A stretch of DNA of 64,000 nucleotides from Escherichia coli (GCF_013315695.1 NZ_CP054353.1), one strand, 5' to 3'. Shown: positions 8,148 to 26,349, numbered from the stretch's first letter. The notes: generated from the sequence alone by a model not told the origin. Made by a program: numbers and translations.

Positions 8148-8891
8148 ATGACACAGACAGAATCAGCGATTCTGGCGCATGCCCGGCGGTGTGTGCCTGC
8201 GGAGTCGTGCGGCTTAGTGGTGAGAACGCCGGAGGGGGAGCGGTATATCCCTTGTGTGAATATCTCTGCAGAGCCGGAGGCGTATTTTCGTATTGCACCG
8301 GAAGACTGGCTGCGGGCAGAGATGCAGGGGGAGATTGTGGCACTGGTCCACAGTCATCCCGGTGGGCTGCCCTGGCTGAGCGAGGCTGACCGGCGGCTGC
8401 AGATAAAAAGCGCACTGCCCTGGTGGCTGGTCTGCCGGGGTGACATTCACAAATTCCGCTGCGTGCCGCACCTGACGGGACGGCGCTTTGAGCACGGGGT
8501 GACGGACTGTTACACCCTGTTCCGGGATGCATACCATCTGGCGGGGACTGAAATGCCGGATTTTCATCGCGAGGATGACTGGTGGCGCAACGGTCAGAAC
8601 CTTTACCTGGACAATATGGCGGTCACCGGCTTTTACCGGGTGCCCCTGTCCTCTGCACAGGCGGGCGATATTCTGCTGTGCTGCTTTGGTGCTTCGGTAC
8701 CGAACCATGCCGCCATTTACTGCGGCAACGGTGAGCTGCTTCACCATCTGCCTGAACAACTGAGTAAACGGGAGAGGTATTCCGAAAAATGGCAACGACG
8801 AACGCATTCTGTCTGGCGTCACCGCCACTGGCACGCATCTGCCTTCACGGGGATTTGCAACGATTTGGCCGCCGCCTCAGCCTGTATGTGA
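8148..8891 (+). CDS. K: Tail tip assembly protein K (MPN/JAB plus NlpC/P60 domains)
   Basis: 247 aa; HSHP metal motif then Cys/His NlpC-like region; lambda gpK-like; 3' end overlaps I. Confidence 0.8.
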   Translation: MTQTESAILAHARRCVPAESCGLVVRTPEGERYIPCVNISAEPEAYFRIAPEDWLRAEMQGEIVALVHSHPGGLPWLSEADRRLQIKSALPWWLVCRGDIHKFRCVPHLTGRRFEHGVTDCYTLFRDAYHLAGTEMPDFHREDDWWRNGQNLYLDNMAVTGFYRVPLSSAQAGDILLCCFGASVPNHAAIYCGNGELLHHLPEQLSKRERYSEKWQRRTHSVWRHRHWHASAFTGICNDLAAASACM

Positions 8892-9469
8892 ACACGGCAG
8901 CGGAAGCCATTCGCGCCCTGTCGATGCAGATGCCGGGCTTTCGCCGTCAGATGAACGAAGGCTGGTACCAGATACGTATTGCCGGTGATGACACGGCACC
9001 GGAGGCGGTGTATGCCCGTCTTCACGAACAGCTGGGTGAGGGAACGGTCATCCACATTGTGCCGCGACTGGCCGGGGCCGGAAAGGGTGGACTGCAGATT
9101 GTGCTGGGGGCGGCAGCCATCGTGGGCTCTTTCTTCACGGCCGGAGGCTCGATGGCGTTATGGGGTACAGCCCTGAGTGCCGGTGGTTTTTCTGCCACCA
9201 CGATGCTGTTTTCACTGGGTGCCAGCATGATACTGGGCGGAGTGGCCCAGATGCTGGCCCCGAAGGCAAAAACACCGGATTACCGCGCAACGGATAACGG
9301 CAGACAGAACACGTACTTTTCCTCGCTGGATAACATGATTGCCCAGGGGAACCCGATGCCGGTGCCTTACGGGGAAATGCTGGTTGGCTCCCGCCGTATA
9401 TCCCAGGACATCAGCACCCGTGATGAAGGCGGGGGCGGAAAGGTCGTGGTTATCGGGCGGCAGGGGTAA
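8789..9469 (+). CDS. I: Tail tip assembly protein I
   Basis: 226 aa; ...ARICLHGDLQRFGRR... and Gly-rich hydrophobic middle match lambda gpI. Confidence 0.85.
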   Translation: MATTNAFCLASPPLARICLHGDLQRFGRRLSLYVNTAAEAIRALSMQMPGFRRQMNEGWYQIRIAGDDTAPEAVYARLHEQLGEGTVIHIVPRLAGAGKGGLQIVLGAAAIVGSFFTAGGSMALWGTALSAGGFSATTMLFSLGASMILGGVAQMLAPKAKTPDYRATDNGRQNTYFSSLDNMIAQGNPMPVPYGEMLVGSRRISQDISTRDEGGGGKVVVIGRQG

Positions 9470-9473
9470 AAAG

Positions 9474-9515
9474 AATAAAAAAATCCCGCAGTGATCGCGG
9501 ACAGGAACTGCGGGA
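9474..9515 (-). terminator. Hairpin with adjacent A-run (terminator-like when read on minus strand) in the I-J intergenic insert
   Basis: TCCCGCAG ... CTGCGGGA 8-bp stem, 16-nt loop, preceded on + strand by AATAAAAAAA. Confidence 0.35.
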
Positions 9516-9680
9516 GAGTTACGAAGATTAAGTGTAAGGAATTATTCTTATATCACGACAAAAAAATTAACGCAGAGAAATTATACGCGCCACAGTCAGT
9601 TTGTGAAAATGTGAAGATATTCAGAATTTTTATGCCATTACCGGTTTTAACCAACAGGATTATCGGTGGGCATGAAAGAA

Positions 9681-9715
9681 AACCCCGGTATCTGCTGATA
9701 CCGGGGTTTCTCTTT
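9681..9715. terminator. Perfect 11-bp palindromic hairpin flanked by A-rich and T-rich tracts (bidirectional terminator-like)
   Basis: AACCCCGGTAT-ctgctg-ATACCGGGGTT followed by TCTCTTT. Confidence 0.35.
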
Positions 9716-9812
9716 AGCATGGCAGAAATGTGTTTCATGCTTTTCGGGCGAAGGATATCCGACTTCTGTACGGAATGGCAAGTGGCGGTTAATTTATTCA
9801 GGGGAAGGCTGT

Positions 9813-12800
9813 ATGGGAAAAGGTGGCGGTAAGGCACACACGCCTCGTGAGGCGAAGGATAATCTCAAATCCACGCAGATGATGAGTGTGATTGATGCGA
9901 TTGGTGAGGGACCGATAGAAGGTCCGGTGAAGGGACTGCAGAGTATTCTGGTGAACAAAACCCCGCTGACGGACACGGACGGTAATCCCGTGATACACGG
10001 TGTGACTGCGGTCTGGCGTGCCGGGGAGCAGGAGCAGACACCACCGGAAGGCTTTGAGTCCTCCGGAGCTGAAACCGGACTGGGCGTGGAAGTGACGAAG
10101 GCAAAACCGGTGACGCGCACCATTACGTCCGCGAACATTGACCGCCTGCGGGTTACCTTCGGGGTGCAGTCACTGGTGCAGACCACGTCAAAGGGCGACC
10201 GTAATCCTTCCTCTGTCCGGATTCTGATTCAGTTACAGCGTAATGGCCGCTGGGTGACGGAAAAGGATGTCACCATTAACGGCAAGACCACCTCGCAGTT
10301 CCTGGCCTCGGTGATTCTGGATAATCTGCCTCCCCGGCCCTTTAACATCCGGATGGTCAGGGAGACGGCGGACAGCACCACGGACCAGCTGCAGAATAAG
10401 ACGCTGTGGTCGTCATACACCGAAATCATCGATGTGAAACAGTGCTACCCGAACACGGCCATTGTGGGGCTGCAGGTGGATGCGGAGCAGTTCGGCGGCC
10501 AGCAGATGACGGTGAACTACCATATCCGCGGTCGCATCATCCAGGTGCCGTCAAACTATGACCCGGAAAAACGCACGTACAGTGGTATCTGGGACGGCAG
10601 CCTGAAACCGGCATACAGCAACAACCCGGCCTGGTGTCTGTGGGACATGCTGACTCACCCGCGCTACGGCATGGGAAAACGTCTGGGGGCGGCGGATGTG
10701 GACAAGTGGGCGCTGTATGCCATCGGGCAGTACTGCGACCAGACGGTCCCGGATGGTTTCGGGGGGACCGAGCCGCGGATGACCTTTAATGCGTACCTGG
10801 CACAACAGCGTAAGGCGTGGGACGTTCTCAGTGATTTCTGCTCTGCGATGCGCTGTATGCCGGTATGGAACGGCCAGACGCTGACGTTCGTTCAGGACCG
10901 TCCGTCGGATGTGGTGTGGCCGTACACCAACAGCGATGTGGTGGTGGATGATAACGGCGTGGGTTTCCGCTACAGCTCCAGTGCCCTGAAGGACCGGCAC
11001 ACGGCAGTGGAGGTGAATTACACCGACCCGCAGAACGGCTGGCAGACCTCCACGGAACTGGTGGAAGACCCGGAAGCCATACTGCGCTACGGACGCAACC
11101 TGCTGAAGATGGACGCGTTCGGCTGTACCAGCCGCGGTCAGGCCCACCGTGCCGGGCTGTGGGTGATAAAGACCGAACTGCTGGAAACGCAGACGGTGGA
11201 TTTCACGCTTGGGTCACAGGGGCTGCGTCACACACCCGGTGACATCATTGAAATCTGTGATAACGACTATGCCGGGACCATGACCGGCGGACGTGTCCTG
11301 TCCATCGATGCCGCCAGCCGTACCCTGACGCTGGACCGGGAGGTGACACTGCCGGAGACCGGCACGGCCACTGTTAATCTGATTAACGGCAGCGGTAAGC
11401 CGGCGAGCGTGGCCATCACCGCACACCCCGCGCCTGACCGGATACAGGTCAGCACCCTGCCGGATGGTGTGGAGACATACGGTGTGTGGGGACTCTCCCT
11501 GCCGTCACTGCGTCGTCGCCTGTTCCGCTGTGTCTCCATCCGGGAAAACACGGACGGCACCTTTGCCATCACGGCGGTGCAGCACGTACCTGAAAAAGAA
11601 GCCATCGTGGATAACGGGGCCCGCTTTGAGCCGCAGTCAGGCACCCTGAACAGCGTTATCCCACCGGCAGTGCAGCACCTGACGGTGGAGGTGAGCGCAG
11701 CTGACGGCCAGTATCTGGCGCAGGCTAAATGGGACACGCCGCGGGTGGTGAAGGGCGTGCGCTTCAGTCTGCGCCTGACCAGTGGTAAGGGAACGGATGC
11801 CAGACTGGTGACCACCGCCATCACCGCAGACACGGAGCACCGTTTCAGCGGCCTGCCACTGGGGGAATACACCCTGACGGTGCGGGCCATTAACAGCTAC
11901 GGCCAGCAGGGCGAACCTGCGACCACCACCTTCCGGATTAACGCGCCTGCAAAACCCGCCACCATTGAGCTGACGCCGGGGTATTTTCAGATAACGGCGG
12001 TACCGGTGCTGGCGGTGTATGACCCGACGGTGCAGTTTGAATTCTGGTTCTCAGAAAAACGCATCACGAACACGGCACAGGTGGAAAAATCTGCCCGTTA
12101 TCTGGGGACCGGCAGTCAGTGGACTGTCCAGGGGAGCCGGATTAAGCCGGGGACGGATTTCTGGTTTTACGTGCGAAGCGTCAACCTGGTGGGAAAATCT
12201 GCTTTTGTGGAAGCCAGCGGGCAGCCCAGCAATGATGGTGAAGGGTATCTGGAAATTTTCCGGGGGCTGATAGATGAGACGCTTCTGGGGCAGGCACTGA
12301 AAGAGCGCATTGATGCTTCAGCGCTGCGTACGGAGGTCACGCAACTGGAAGAAGATATCCGTCAGCGGATGGACACGGATATCGCAGAAGTGACCCGGAA
12401 AATCGGGAAGGCGGAAAACAGCCTCACGCAGCTGGTTGCGAAAAAGAATGAGGACCAGACACTGGCCATCGCGCAGGTGAGCCAGAAAGTGGACCGGGTG
12501 AGCAGTGAAATCTCACAGACTGTCAGCCAGGGGCAGTCAGAAAACGCCCGACAGATAGCACAGGTCCGCCAGTACGTGGATAAAAAAGGGAGTGAAATTA
12601 CCTCGACCACGGATAAAAAGCTGGGTGACCAGGCCGTGACCATACAGCAAATCCAGCGGGTTCAGTCAGACACGCGCAATGAGCTGAATGCCATGTATAT
12701 GCTGAAGGTGCAGAAAACAAAAAACGGTATTCCCTATGTGGCCGGGATTGGCGCGGGGATTGAGGATGTTGATGGTCAGACCCTGAGTAACATTCTGCTG

Positions 12801-13505
12801 CAGGCCGATCGCATTGCGATGATTACCCCGGAGAACGGCAACACCACGCCGCTGTTTGTGGCGCAGGGGAATCAGCTGTTCATGAACGACGTGTTCCTGA
12901 AGCGACTGTTTGCGGTGAGCATCACGTCATCCGGCAATCCTCCGACGTTTTCCCTGACGCCGGATGGCAGGCTGACAGCCCGCAATGCGGATATCAGTGG
13001 AGCCATCACGGCGAATACCGGCACGCTCAATAATGTCACCATTAACGAGAACTGTGTCATCAGAGGGAAACTGTCTGCAAACCAGATTGAAGGCGATCTC
13101 GTTAAAACAGTGGGTAAGGCTTTCCCCCGTGACTCCCGTGCACCGAAGCGTTGGCCATCAGGAACCATTACCGTCAGGGTTTATGACGATCAGCCGTTTA
13201 ACCGGCAGATTGTTATTCCGGCGGTGGCTTTCAGCGGTGCCAGACATGAGCGGGAGAACAGCGATACTTATTCGTCATGCCGCCTGATAGTGAAGAAAAA
13301 CGGTGCTGAAATTTATAACCGTACCGCGATGGATAATACGCTGGTTTACAGTGGTGTTATTGATATGCCTGCTGGTCGCGGCCACATGACGCTGGAGTTT
13401 TCTGTATCAGCATGGTGGGTAAATGGCTGGTATCCCACAGCAAGTATCAGCGATTTGCTGGTTGTTGTGATGAAGAAAGCCACTGCAGGCATCACGATTA
13501 GCTGA
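9813..13505 (+). CDS. J: Host specificity / central tail fibre protein J
   Basis: 1230 aa; N-terminal 850 aa and C-terminal 270 aa colinear with lambda gpJ; extra coiled-coil segment in between. Confidence 0.95.
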
Positions 13506-13572: not shown

Positions 13573-14172
13573 ATGCGTAAATTATGTGCAGCCATTTTGT
13601 CCGCAGCCATCTGTCTGTCCGTATCCGGTGCGCCTGCATGGGCGTCTGAACATCAGTCCACACTGAGCGCGGGGTATCTTCATGCCCGTACGAACGCTCC
13701 CGGCAGCGATAATCTGAACGGGATTAACGTGAAATACCGTTATGAGTTTACGGACACGCTGGGGCTGATTACGTCCTTCAGTTATGCCAATGCTGAGGAT
13801 GAGCAAAAAACGCACTACAACGATACCCGCTGGCATGAAGATTCCGTGCGTAACCGCTGGTTCAGCGTGATGGCGGGGCCGTCTGTACGCGTGAATGAAT
13901 GGTTCAGCGCGTATGCGATGGTGGGTGTGGCTTACAGCCGTGTGTCGACTTTCTCCGGGGATTATCTCCGCGTAACTGACAACAAGGGGAAAACGCACGA
14001 TGTGCTGACCGGAAGTGATGACGGTCGCCACAGCAACACGTCTCTGGCGTGGGGGGCTGGCGTGCAGTTTAACCCGACCGAATCCGTGGCCATTGATATT
14101 GCTTATGAAGGCTCCGGTAGTGGTGACTGGCGCACTGACGGTTTCATCGTGGGTGTCGGTTATAAGTTCTGA
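13573..14172 (+). CDS. lom: Outer membrane protein Lom (Ail/PagC family)
   Basis: 199 aa; nearly colinear with lambda Lom including signal peptide. Confidence 0.9.
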   Translation: MRKLCAAILSAAICLSVSGAPAWASEHQSTLSAGYLHARTNAPGSDNLNGINVKYRYEFTDTLGLITSFSYANAEDEQKTHYNDTRWHEDSVRNRWFSVMAGPSVRVNEWFSAYAMVGVAYSRVSTFSGDYLRVTDNKGKTHDVLTGSDDGRHSNTSLAWGAGVQFNPTESVAIDIAYEGSGSGDWRTDGFIVGVGYKF

Positions 14173-14236: not shown

Positions 14237-16303
14237 ATGGCAGCAGTAAAAATCTCAGGTGTGCTGAAAGATGGTGCGGGAAAACCAATACAGAACTGCA
14301 CTATTCAACTGAAGGCAAAGCGTAACAGCACCACGGTACTGGTGAACACGGTGGCCTCTGAAAATCCGGATGAAGCCGGGCGTTACAGCATGGATGTTGA
14401 GTATGGCCAGTACAGCGTCACCCTGCTGGTTGAAGGTTTTCCACCTTCACATGCCGGGACCATTACCGTCTATGAAGGTTCCAGACCAGGTACGCTGAAT
14501 GATTTTCTCGGTGCCATGACGGAGGATGATGTTCGTCCGGAGGCACTGCGCCGTTTTGAGCTGATGGTGAATGAAGTGGCACGTCATGCCGGAGCGTCAT
14601 CACAGAGTGCAGCGGCGGCAAAGAAATCCGAAACGGCAGCAGCCTCATCGAAGAATGCGGCGAAAACCTCAGAAACGAATGCAGCTAACAGCGCACAGGC
14701 GGCAGCGGCCTCGCAGACTGCATCGGCAAACTCCGCGACAGCAGCCAAAAAATCAGAAACCAGCGCGAAAAATAGCGAGACAGCCACAAAGGCCAGCGAA
14801 AAAAACGCAAAATCCAGCCAGACGGCAGCGAAAACCAGTGAGACGAATGCCAAAGACAGTGAAGCCAACGCAAAGGTGAGCGAAACAGCGGCGGCGAACT
14901 CGGCGAAAGCATCGGCAGCAAGCCAGACGGCAGCAAAAGCAAGTGAAGATGCTGCCAGAGAATACGCAAACCAGACAGCAGAGCCGTACAGATATGTTTT
15001 ACAGCCGCTGCCGGATGTGTGGATACCCTTTAATGATTCGCTGGATATGATTACGGGCTATTCTCCGGGTTATAAAAAAGTGAAGATTGGTGATAATGTG
15101 GTTCAGGTTGCCAGTGATAAACAGGTTAATTTCAGTCGCGCATCAACGGCAACATATATCAACAAATCTGGCGAACTGAAAACGGCGGAAATTAATGAGC
15201 CACGATTTGAGTGTGATGGCCTGCTTATTGAGGGGCAAAGAACGAACTTCTTCCCGAACAGTACAGACCCTTCGAAGTGGAATAAGTCAACTTCACTGGA
15301 CGTTACAGAAACAGGCACAGATAGTTTCGGGTTTAATTATGGCCGGTTTGTCGTACAGGATTCGATTGTTGGTACAAGTAAAGCGCATACCATTATCGGA
15401 CTGTATTCGAGTACCGGAGGGGTTGATACTTCAGGGGACGAAAAGCATGTAACTATATCCTGTCGGGTAAAAAGTGAAGTTGATAATATCGCCGTTCGTA
15501 TTTTATTTGAACATTATGATGGGGAGGTAAGGACATCAATAGGAGCAGCAAACCTGAACCTTACCACCCGCATAATTAGCAAGACAGGTCAGACAAGCCG
15601 TGTTACAGCAAGGTCTGTTAAGGATGATGCAACTGGCTGGATATTTTTTGAGGCTACATTAAAAGCAGATACAACAGAAAATACGGTTGGTGGTTTTGTC
15701 CAGTATTCTCCGGATACAGGGCAGATGGTTGCATCAGGGGATTATCTCGATGTAACCACTCCACAGATTGAGGCTGGTACAGGCGCATCATCTTTTATTG
15801 TTACGGGGACGGCACCGGTAACGCGGGCAAGCGATATGGTTACAGTTCCGATTAAGAATAATCTTTATAATCTTCCTTTTACGGTTCTTTGTGAGGTACA
15901 TAAGAACTGGTATAAAACGCCAAATGCAGCACCGCGTGTTTTTGACACATACCGGCATCAGGCAGATGCGGGGATCGTAATGGGGTTTGGTTCATCAGGT
16001 GGGTACGACGGTTTTCCGTATTGCGATATAGGTGGTTCAGACCGACGAATAAATGAAAATGCCGGGCTGGAAAAAATGCTTATTGGTATGCGGGTAAAGT
16101 CCGAACGGTCCACATGTGTAGTCAGTAACGGTAAGTTAAGCAGCGAAACTAAAACCAAATGGGAATATATCCGGAGTACAGCAACCATTCGCATTGGTGG
16201 ACAAACTACAGCAGGATTACGCCATTTATTTGGGCATGTGAGGAATTTTCGTCTCTGGCATAAAGAGCTAACAGATGCGCAGCTTGGGGAGGTTGTGGAG
16301 TGA
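14237..16303 (+). CDS. stf: Side tail fibre protein, lambda Stf-like N-terminus with divergent C-terminal receptor-binding domain
   Basis: First 120 aa match lambda Stf (AVKISGVLKDG...), then Ala/Ser/Thr-rich SETNA/AAKxSE repeats, then about 400 aa with no lambda counterpart; start set at ATG 14237. Confidence 0.75.
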   Translation: MAAVKISGVLKDGAGKPIQNCTIQLKAKRNSTTVLVNTVASENPDEAGRYSMDVEYGQYSVTLLVEGFPPSHAGTITVYEGSRPGTLNDFLGAMTEDDVRPEALRRFELMVNEVARHAGASSQSAAAAKKSETAAASSKNAAKTSETNAANSAQAAAASQTASANSATAAKKSETSAKNSETATKASEKNAKSSQTAAKTSETNAKDSEANAKVSETAAANSAKASAASQTAAKASEDAAREYANQTAEPYRYVLQPLPDVWIPFNDSLDMITGYSPGYKKVKIGDNVVQVASDKQVNFSRASTATYINKSGELKTAEINEPRFECDGLLIEGQRTNFFPNSTDPSKWNKSTSLDVTETGTDSFGFNYGRFVVQDSIVGTSKAHTIIGLYSSTGGVDTSGDEKHVTISCRVKSEVDNIAVRILFEHYDGEVRTSIGAANLNLTTRIISKTGQTSRVTARSVKDDATGWIFFEATLKADTTENTVGGFVQYSPDTGQMVASGDYLDVTTPQIEAGTGASSFIVTGTAPVTRASDMVTVPIKNNLYNLPFTVLCEVHKNWYKTPNAAPRVFDTYRHQADAGIVMGFGSSGGYDGFPYCDIGGSDRRINENAGLEKMLIGMRVKSERSTCVVSNGKLSSETKTKWEYIRSTATIRIGGQTTAGLRHLFGHVRNFRLWHKELTDAQLGEVVE

Positions 16304-25801: not shown

Positions 25802-26349
25802 TATGTATTCCCTTGTGATTATAATCTTCATGAATATATCAATAAGTGCTGTTATCCAAAAAAAGCACATTTGGATACTATTCTATGAAGTTCATTTTAT
25901 TTTAAAGATTACATGTAACAAATGTATTTAAAAGATTTCAAAATGTTTCTAATCTATTTAATATAATTCATAGTTATGAATTCTGAATATAAATATTCAC
26001 GAATATTATGGATATATATCAATATGTTATGAGTTGATCGAAAAGATAGGGAGTATCAATGATTGTTGCGCTAAACGGCTGGTGTGATCTCGCGCACATT
26101 AATGAAGGCATAAAAAAAAGCCGGCATCATGCCGGCCCAAAAAAATATAAACAAGACGATAAAAGGCTAATAACGGAGGCATGATGACACAGAAAAATAA
26201 AAAGGTATAATTGTAATCAGTACCAATATATTGATTGAATGAATTAATAAAGCCGAAATCAAAGATAAATAACATCGTTCAAATCGATTTTTCCTGTATT
26301 CACCGCCGTTGCGCAAAATTTATCTATTTGTTCAAAAAATGATTGAGTC

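Follow-up and report, generated by a model that had tools for sequence, protein, structure and literature searches.

Prophage small RNAs connect horizontally acquired DNA with host regulation, and PasB is among the better-connected accessory sRNAs in EPEC. PasB (pathogenicity-associated sRNA B) is encoded in prophage PP6 of EPEC E2348/69 (NC_011601, 1466343..1466261, minus strand), is 83 nt long and is listed with the Northern probe AATCCCGCAGTGATCGCGGAGCT (Pearl Mizrahi et al. 2021, PMC8550237 Table S6). The sizes and the Hfq-dependent stability of the Pas sRNAs were confirmed by Northern blots. In the same work PasB had 37 RIL-seq interactions, and its chimeras, in which it acts as the sRNA partner, were with many RNAs of the core and the accessory genome (PMC8550237). 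A recent preprint places PasB within an operon of genes for phage structural proteins, describes it as widespread outside EPEC and EHEC, and proposes that its seed directly precedes the terminator (Zhu, Shabalina and Storz 2026, bioRxiv 10.64898/2026.05.13.724894).

Three further prophage sRNAs, EcOnc22, EcOnc23 and EcOnc24, were found as Hfq-crosslinked RNAs in the O157 Sakai prophages Sp15 (Stx1), Sp14 and Sp11 (Tree et al. 2014, PMC4104026 Table S2). They gave a Northern band of ~85 nt and were destabilised in a delta-hfq strain (PMC4104026). For PasB itself, no EHEC homologue is given in Table S6 of PMC8550237.

Here, we describe a related locus in E. coli NZ_CP054353.1 (GCF_013315695.1). 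The window is the whole stretch of 64,000 nt that was analyzed, and all positions are counted from its first letter. The locus is a gap between the phage tail genes I and J, for which we establish the anatomy, the homology, the distribution and the non-coding status. The window sRNA is a divergent member of the known prophage sRNA family, and current views are not overturned by it. Both the sRNA gene and the hairpin in front of J are real, but they are common and already largely known.

Anatomy of the gap between tail genes I and J

The left boundary of the gap is the gene for tail assembly protein I (8789..9469, plus strand), an open reading frame that ends with the stop codon TAA at 9467-9469 and matches Pfam PF06805 (Lambda_tail_I, E=1.8e-16). 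The right boundary is the gene for J, the tip attachment or host specificity protein (9813..13505, plus strand), which has J-specific Pfam domains with E values down to 1.6e-41. Since the I frame ends at 9469 and the J frame starts at 9813, the gap occupies 9470-9812 and measures 343 bp. Directly 3' of J lies a gene for an outer-membrane protein of the Ail/Lom family (13573-14172, plus strand; PF06316, E=3e-127), and lom has the same place in lambda. The J leader (9745..9812, plus strand) carries a Shine-Dalgarno-like sequence, GGGGAAGG, at 9801-9808 and is 100% identical across 13 phage records.

A first-pass annotation had described a non-coding gap of 343 bp with two hairpins between I and J, and the reading frames, the Pfam matches and an inverted-repeat scan bore this out. 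It had also considered the insert unusual by comparison with lambda. The comparison holds in that only 60 bp separate I from J in lambda and in phage D2, both of which are without the sRNA unit. The insert is nevertheless common: in a set of 5426 complete E. coli genomes, 1661 carried the whole insert or its sRNA half. An allele 100% identical to that of the window is found in E. coli strain SK1144 (NZ_AP018784.2, 2876607-2876949). We consider it highly probable that the gap holds two separate things, a leftward sRNA gene and a hairpin (hairpin 2) that precedes J.

The sRNA gene is read from the minus strand. Its sigma-70 promoter (9580..9607) consists of a -35 element TTCACA at 9607-9602, a 16-nt spacer and a -10 element TATAAT at 9585-9580, and it matches the consensus at 11 of 12 positions. 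From the predicted start site, the primary transcript would be ~97 nt long (9477..9573, minus strand). A 5' end homologous to the annotated end of PasB would be at ~9560, 13-14 nt downstream of the predicted start site, giving an RNA of ~84 nt. The intrinsic terminator (9477..9515, minus strand) has the stem UCCCGCAGU/ACUGCGGGA (9515-9507 and 9492-9484) followed by U7 (9483-9477). On the DNA, this is hairpin 1, with arms at 9484-9492 and 9507-9515 that form 9 perfect base pairs around a 14-nt loop, and with A7 in front of it at 9477-9483. A terminator scan reported hairpin 1 on the minus strand, in agreement with the earlier view that the hairpin and its A-run are terminator-like on that strand; a T-run is absent on the plus strand. 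Folded as RNA, hairpin 1 reaches -15.7 kcal/mol (z = -4.1). The predicted 3' end of the sRNA is 8 nt away from the stop codon of I. Upstream of the terminator is a conserved single-stranded core, UUCCUUACACUUAAUCUUCG, and in the minimum free energy fold the core and the putative seed are unpaired apart from weak pairs.

The earlier suggestion of a small leftward unit inside the tail operon therefore stands in part. The unit has a homologue in PasB, but its limits are the promoter at 9607-9580 and the RNA from 9573 to 9477, not the 165 bp between the hairpins. We regard this minus-strand unit, directed leftward against the tail operon, as very probably an sRNA gene of the PasB/EcOnc22 family.

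A conserved block that resembles a CRP site (9607..9628), AAATGTGAAGATATTCAGAATT, was read from the sequence upstream of the -35 element. This 22-mer matches the left half of the CRP site at 8/8 positions and the right half at 6/8. The part ATATTCAGAA is preserved in nearly all loci, and the half-sites TGTGA and TCAGA are preserved in Sakai Sp15 despite a different spacer and a different core promoter. The center of the block is at about -44.5 or -45.5, which is a non-canonical position for CRP. This candidate site may place the sRNA under catabolite control. Such control, if real, would fit the reportedly higher level of PasB in LB than in glucose-containing DMEM.

By analogy with its homologues, the following course of expression is predicted for the window allele. 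The near-consensus sigma-70 promoter at 9607-9580 would fire against the direction of the late operon, and the transcript would end at hairpin 1 and its U7 (9515-9477). A lysogen would be expected to make the sRNA independently of late transcription. Hfq would bind the U-tail and the terminator hairpin, and pairing with mRNAs would take place through the single-stranded stretch that contains the AUCUU core and an anti-Shine-Dalgarno-like UCCUU. When the starts of 168 open reading frames in the window were searched for targets, the best duplex had -26.0 kcal/mol, compared to a median of -26.1 kcal/mol for shuffled sequences.

The arrangement is that of a moron, a concept that goes back to Juhala et al. 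2000, as cited in PMC4104026. The unit has its own promoter and its own terminator around its cargo, at a place where I and J are close together (60 bp) in lambda and D2. It would thus be a moron-type insertion beside the stop codon of I, a self-contained gene for an Hfq-dependent base-pairing sRNA. It shares with the lambdoid morons lom and bor of lambda and with AgvB and AsxR the form of an autonomous promoter-gene-terminator unit between genes that are adjacent in related phages. The lambdoid morons and the homologues of the window RNA are both expressed from the prophage; uninduced cultures of EPEC and EHEC contained these homologues (PMC8550237; PMC4104026), and the window unit is probably expressed from its prophage as well. 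Unlike lom and bor, the window unit has a non-coding RNA as cargo, is opposite to the late operon and lies within the block of tail genes. AgvB and AsxR lie downstream of pR', whereas the window unit is at I-J. Identity with the anti-sRNAs AgvB and AsxR was rejected, since those occupy the moron site at pR' and gave no sequence match.

Relationship to PasB and to EcOnc22, EcOnc23 and EcOnc24

In E2348/69, PasB is located between genes annotated as 'tail assembly protein' and 'gpJ'. The promoter block and the terminator of E2348/69 align with the window nearly base for base, and the block CCACAGTCAGTNTGTGAAAATGTGAAG is identical between the two and recurs in at least 114 IMG/VR loci. Over its first 20 nt, the PasB probe equals window positions 9481-9500, so that 20 of the 23 probe nucleotides match. 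The window and PasB thus have in common the I-J site, the antisense orientation, the promoter block, the terminator stem with U7 and a similar length. They differ in the core before the terminator, which is AAUCUU in the window and GAUCUU in PasB, and in the terminator loop, which is 5-6 nt longer in the window. The bodies of the two RNAs are ~58% identical. The segments from the promoter to J are unrelated, with 199 nt and hairpin 2 in the window compared to 97 nt and a CAGGCACC hairpin in E2348/69.

When the window was searched by BLAST with PasB, the terminator alone was aligned (25 nt). A covariance model was built from 15 alleles of the PasB class and Sakai, with the window class left out. 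It matched 9477-9573 on the minus strand over model positions 1-98 with 61.2 bits (E=6.1e-10), a score of which the terminator supplies much, and this was the sole significant match in 64 kb. Because the BLAST match to PasB is limited to the terminator, homology of the RNA body rests on the covariance model, on synteny and on alleles that are mosaic intermediates. With a body only ~58% identical to that of PasB, the window RNA represents a distinct allele class, and its target set probably differs from that published for PasB.

This gene is left unmarked by current annotation. At the Rfam gathering threshold, rseX was the only match in the whole window, with none for the window sRNA; in the region 8500-11000, no relevant match was obtained at E<=1. 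PasB of E2348/69 has no Rfam match itself. The window-class sRNA gene was unannotated by RefSeq/PGAP in every genome counted, and a literature search with the window RNA sequence and the PasB probe sequence found no paper. A covariance model of the family alleles would annotate the gene that Rfam and PGAP leave unmarked. The rseX match is a host sRNA gene (26113-26203, minus strand; RF01401, 90.8 bits), and its presence indicates that the window's right part is chromosomal DNA of the bacterium.

The EcOnc RNAs of Sakai appear to belong to the same family. In NC_002695.2, all three EcOnc coordinates fall inside identical 240-bp I-J gaps, antisense to the tail genes (loci L123 2337-2427, L124 and L125), and the PasB-like unit in this gap scored 82.6 bits with the family model. 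EcOnc22-24 share the terminator stem and the AAUCUUC core of the window. The core promoter of EcOnc22 differs from that of the window, with AATAAT as its -10 element and TTCACA missing at -35. The EcOnc22 body is ~58% identical to the window allele, and the whole aligned RNA is 66% identical.

The published EcOnc coordinates refer to version.1 of the genome, and this mapping uses an offset of +128 to +139 that we infer from two comparisons. The present Sakai sequence is 5,498,578 bp long, and version.1 is taken to have been 5,498,450 bp (Hayashi 2001), a difference of 128 bp. The AgvB anchor gives an offset of ~+139. With any offset in this range, the Hfq peak falls on the RNA body. EcOnc51, a homologue of PasA, is an ambiguous anchor that gives either -20 or +131, because two tandem PasA/PasC-like units are present in Sp12. 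Located between the holin gene and ECs_2262, these two units have a terminator each (L149 251-336 and ~411-487; NC_002695.2 2237450-2237686).

Allele classes and distribution

Scanning IMG/VR with the promoter block yielded at least 114 usable loci with 34 distinct RNA alleles. The -10 element, which lay outside the search pattern, is [T/A/G]ATAAT in 114/114 retrieved loci and is also kept in E2348/69. All 34 alleles keep the -10 element, the AUCUU core and the terminator, and their bodies vary, with mosaic intermediates. Among the distinct alleles that were aligned, the stem CCCGCAG/CUGCGGG is unvaried in 24 of 25 and is followed by U6-8; the exception, L008, is without the distal arm. PasB of E2348/69 has the same terminator stem. 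AUCUU is present in 25/25 aligned alleles, as AAUCUU in 21 and as GAUCUU in 4 of the E2348/69 type, PasB included, and the UCCUU upstream of the core is nearly invariant among them. This comparison of alleles points to AUCUU together with UCCUU as the likely seed.

Covariation analysis of the RNA structure, which the first-pass annotation had put forward as a check, brought no support, as no compensatory change was found and the predicted 5' helix was no better than shuffled sequences. Since the terminator stem is invariant, it provides no covariation evidence in either direction.

Where the window is compared with PasB-2 loci that have the same right-hand module, identity is 66-72% in 9489-9585 only and 100% in 9289-9438 and 9636-9935. 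This pattern looks like a cassette-type replacement or a locally accelerated change of the RNA body. In mosaic alleles such as L046, L087 and L090, parts of both classes are joined. The confined divergence between identical flanks, along with these intermediates, gives the picture of an interchangeable cassette at a fixed I-J expression site, in which the promoter, the AUCUU core and the terminator would be constant and the rest of the body swapped or diversified. In its full form, this would make the window RNA a separate, unnamed sRNA with a regulon of its own. We hold that joint reading to be possible and lean somewhat against it.

A megablast search of the 5426 complete E. coli genomes found the window class in 799, with 612 records at >=99% identity. 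The PasB class was found in 956 of the 5426, mostly as the single-nucleotide variant PasB-2, which was recognized indirectly through its C27A change. Each class is therefore carried by some 15-18% of these genomes. The published BLAST-seeded count of PasB is 1,158 hits. This is close to the count of the PasB class alone, suggesting that the window class was not included in it. Since a BLAST-seeded survey would miss the window class, the family would be about twice as widespread in E. coli as the published counts suggest. At least two deeply diverged classes at the I-J site, with EcOnc22-24 as apparent members, enlarge the family and bring names from three papers together.

Genomes representing species were scanned with a pattern of terminator plus core, and the 17 matches were then scored with the covariance model. 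The real family members among these were from E. albertii and from three short contigs that are probably mis-binned. The remaining matches were rejected as chance terminators (18-28 bits). This result agrees with the published range of the family, which is Escherichia and Shigella. The sRNA was seen at 45-85 bits in contigs of Collinsella and Clostridiales metagenome-assembled genomes and in a 460-bp contig of Parendozoicomonas haliclonae (L135 4010-4106, L136 141-237, L142 292-382), and these contigs are likely contamination or mis-binning.

The hairpin in front of J and competing readings

Hairpin 2 (9672..9718) is a perfect 13-bp palindrome with an A-tract upstream and a T-tract downstream. 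Its arms are at 9680-9692 and 9697-9709 around a 4-nt loop, and its flanks are GAAAGAAAA and TTTCTCTTT. The fold is -27.1 kcal/mol on the plus strand (z = -9.1) and -26.4 kcal/mol on the minus strand (z = -6.5), and a perfect 13-bp palindrome would be expected by chance in 343 bp with a value of ~1e-4. The first-pass annotation had rightly seen a perfect stem between A- and T-rich flanks, but had placed an 11-bp stem at 9681-9715 instead of 13 bp at 9680-9709. It had also called the hairpin bidirectional and terminator-like, and the A- and T-tracts beside this very stable stem do give it a terminator-like look on either strand; the U-tracts are interrupted (UUUCUCUUU on the plus strand, UUUUCUUUC on the minus strand), and a consensus scan flagged neither strand. 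A smaller plus-strand hairpin at 9717-9740, followed by TTTT, had no significant fold (z = -0.7). Relative to the sRNA promoter, hairpin 2 is ~75-100 bp upstream, a position that places it outside the sRNA, and 104 nt separate it from the start codon of J. The right module and the full insert occur in the same 13 phage records. A 47-nt segment that contains hairpin 2 (9682-9728) is polymorphic for presence and absence, being missing in L035 and L102. Two imperfect direct repeats, GCATGaaAGAAA and GCATGgcAGAAA, delimit this segment, and deletion between them probably accounts for its absence.

Hairpins recur at this place in junctions that are otherwise unrelated. In the E2348/69-type junction, with its 96-97 nt, CAGGCAYC...GRTGCCTG followed by TTGTTTTT has the shape of a plus-strand terminator, with an exchange of C:G to U:A in the stem (L001 ~1900-1995). 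Lambda and phage D2 have ACCGCC-TGCG-GGCGGT followed by TTTGTCATTT before J (lambda 15445-15504, which is L122 746-805). In HK446 (L147) and Klebsiella phage KLB28 (L146), a non-homologous plus-strand hairpin with a T-run lies just before J, and that of KLB28 was annotated as a terminator by its depositors. In Yersinia phage P400, I and J abut and the hairpin is absent. Hairpin 2 resembles the hairpins of lambda, HK446 and KLB28 in its place relative to J and in its G+C-rich stem followed by a T-rich plus-strand run. It is unlike them in that it has no homology to them, is longer (13 bp), is symmetric with its A-tract, and is 104 nt rather than ~20-30 nt before J. Given these recurring hairpins, the most plausible view is that hairpin 2 represents, at this locus, a general feature of lambda-like tail operons and that the sRNA moron was inserted between the hairpin and I. 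No description of such a hairpin before J in lambda-like phages was found in the literature.

By analogy with those hairpins, hairpin 2 would serve as a terminator or an insulator. It most likely halts plus-strand transcription that is not antiterminated by Q before this reaches J. Q-modified polymerase would ignore it in lytic growth. Its minus-strand U-tract means that it could also shield the sRNA promoter from antisense read-through.

One possible explanation for the gap is that its hairpins, and above all hairpin 2, work on the late mRNA itself. As a partial terminator, an attenuator or a 3'-stabilizing barrier, they would adjust the amount of J relative to the tail genes upstream of it, the sRNA being incidental. 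J is required in few copies per virion, and this counts for such a role, as do the recurrence of a plus-strand hairpin with a T-run before J in unrelated junctions and the strong plus-strand fold of hairpin 2. However, only hairpin 2 could attenuate J, since hairpin 1 has no T-run on the plus strand. Hairpin 2 is itself missing in two natural loci, and P400 does without any space between I and J. An intrinsic terminator should not stop Q-antiterminated polymerase, as is well established. Nor does this explanation account for the conserved promoter and terminator on the minus strand. We therefore think this explanation unlikely, and it is compatible with the reading as an sRNA gene and a separate pre-J hairpin only where hairpin 2 is concerned.

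Another explanation gives the minus-strand RNA a predominantly cis role: as an antisense RNA, it would target the late I-J transcript made by its own phage or by a related superinfecting one, through RNase III cleavage or transcriptional interference. By construction, the RNA is complementary to the late mRNA over its whole length, and its promoter is convergent with late transcription. Diversification confined to the body could mean escape from cross-targeting. Against this, the RIL-seq chimeras of PasB are with many core and accessory RNAs (PMC8550237), the family keeps an anti-Shine-Dalgarno-like core that is typical of trans-acting sRNAs, and at least 137-240 nt separate the paired region from the start of J. 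A role mainly in cis seems distinctly improbable to us compared with a base-pairing sRNA of the PasB family.

It is more doubtful still that the minus strand encodes a second sRNA of ~70 nt (~9745 to 9672), with hairpin 2 as its terminator. A promoter-like site, TTGCCA-18-TATCCT at 9781-9752, has 9 of 12 matches, and an 81-nt minus-strand segment that ends in UUUUCUUUC folds at -32.2 kcal/mol (z = -5.8). However, this z-score is borne by the palindrome alone. No Hfq peak was called in the I-J gap of Sakai Sp12, which has the module, and the module is altogether missing in junctions of the E2348/69 type. The right module is almost invariant, so its conservation is uninformative on a second sRNA.

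Finally, the perfect palindrome, the 47-nt presence/absence polymorphism and the direct repeats GCATGaaAGAAA and GCATGgcAGAAA could suggest a REP- or MITE-like mobile element, and a 113-aa frame (9491-9832, plus strand) or a 66-aa frame from the ATG at 9633 could suggest a small-protein gene, but both are very improbable, as the hairpin-2 segment is at I-J junctions and at no dispersed genomic sites, the ATG at 9633 has no Shine-Dalgarno sequence, and natural indels of 1 nt (two loci) and 47 nt (two loci) break every frame across the insert. These indels show the gap region to be non-coding. An annotated repetitive element had been named in advance as the outcome that would speak against the first-pass reading, and the check for dispersed copies showed that the insert is not a repeat: the 68-nt hairpin-2 segment was found in 1445 E. 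coli genomes compared to 1444 with the I-J insert. The segment is matched at two places per genome because the palindrome matches both strands.
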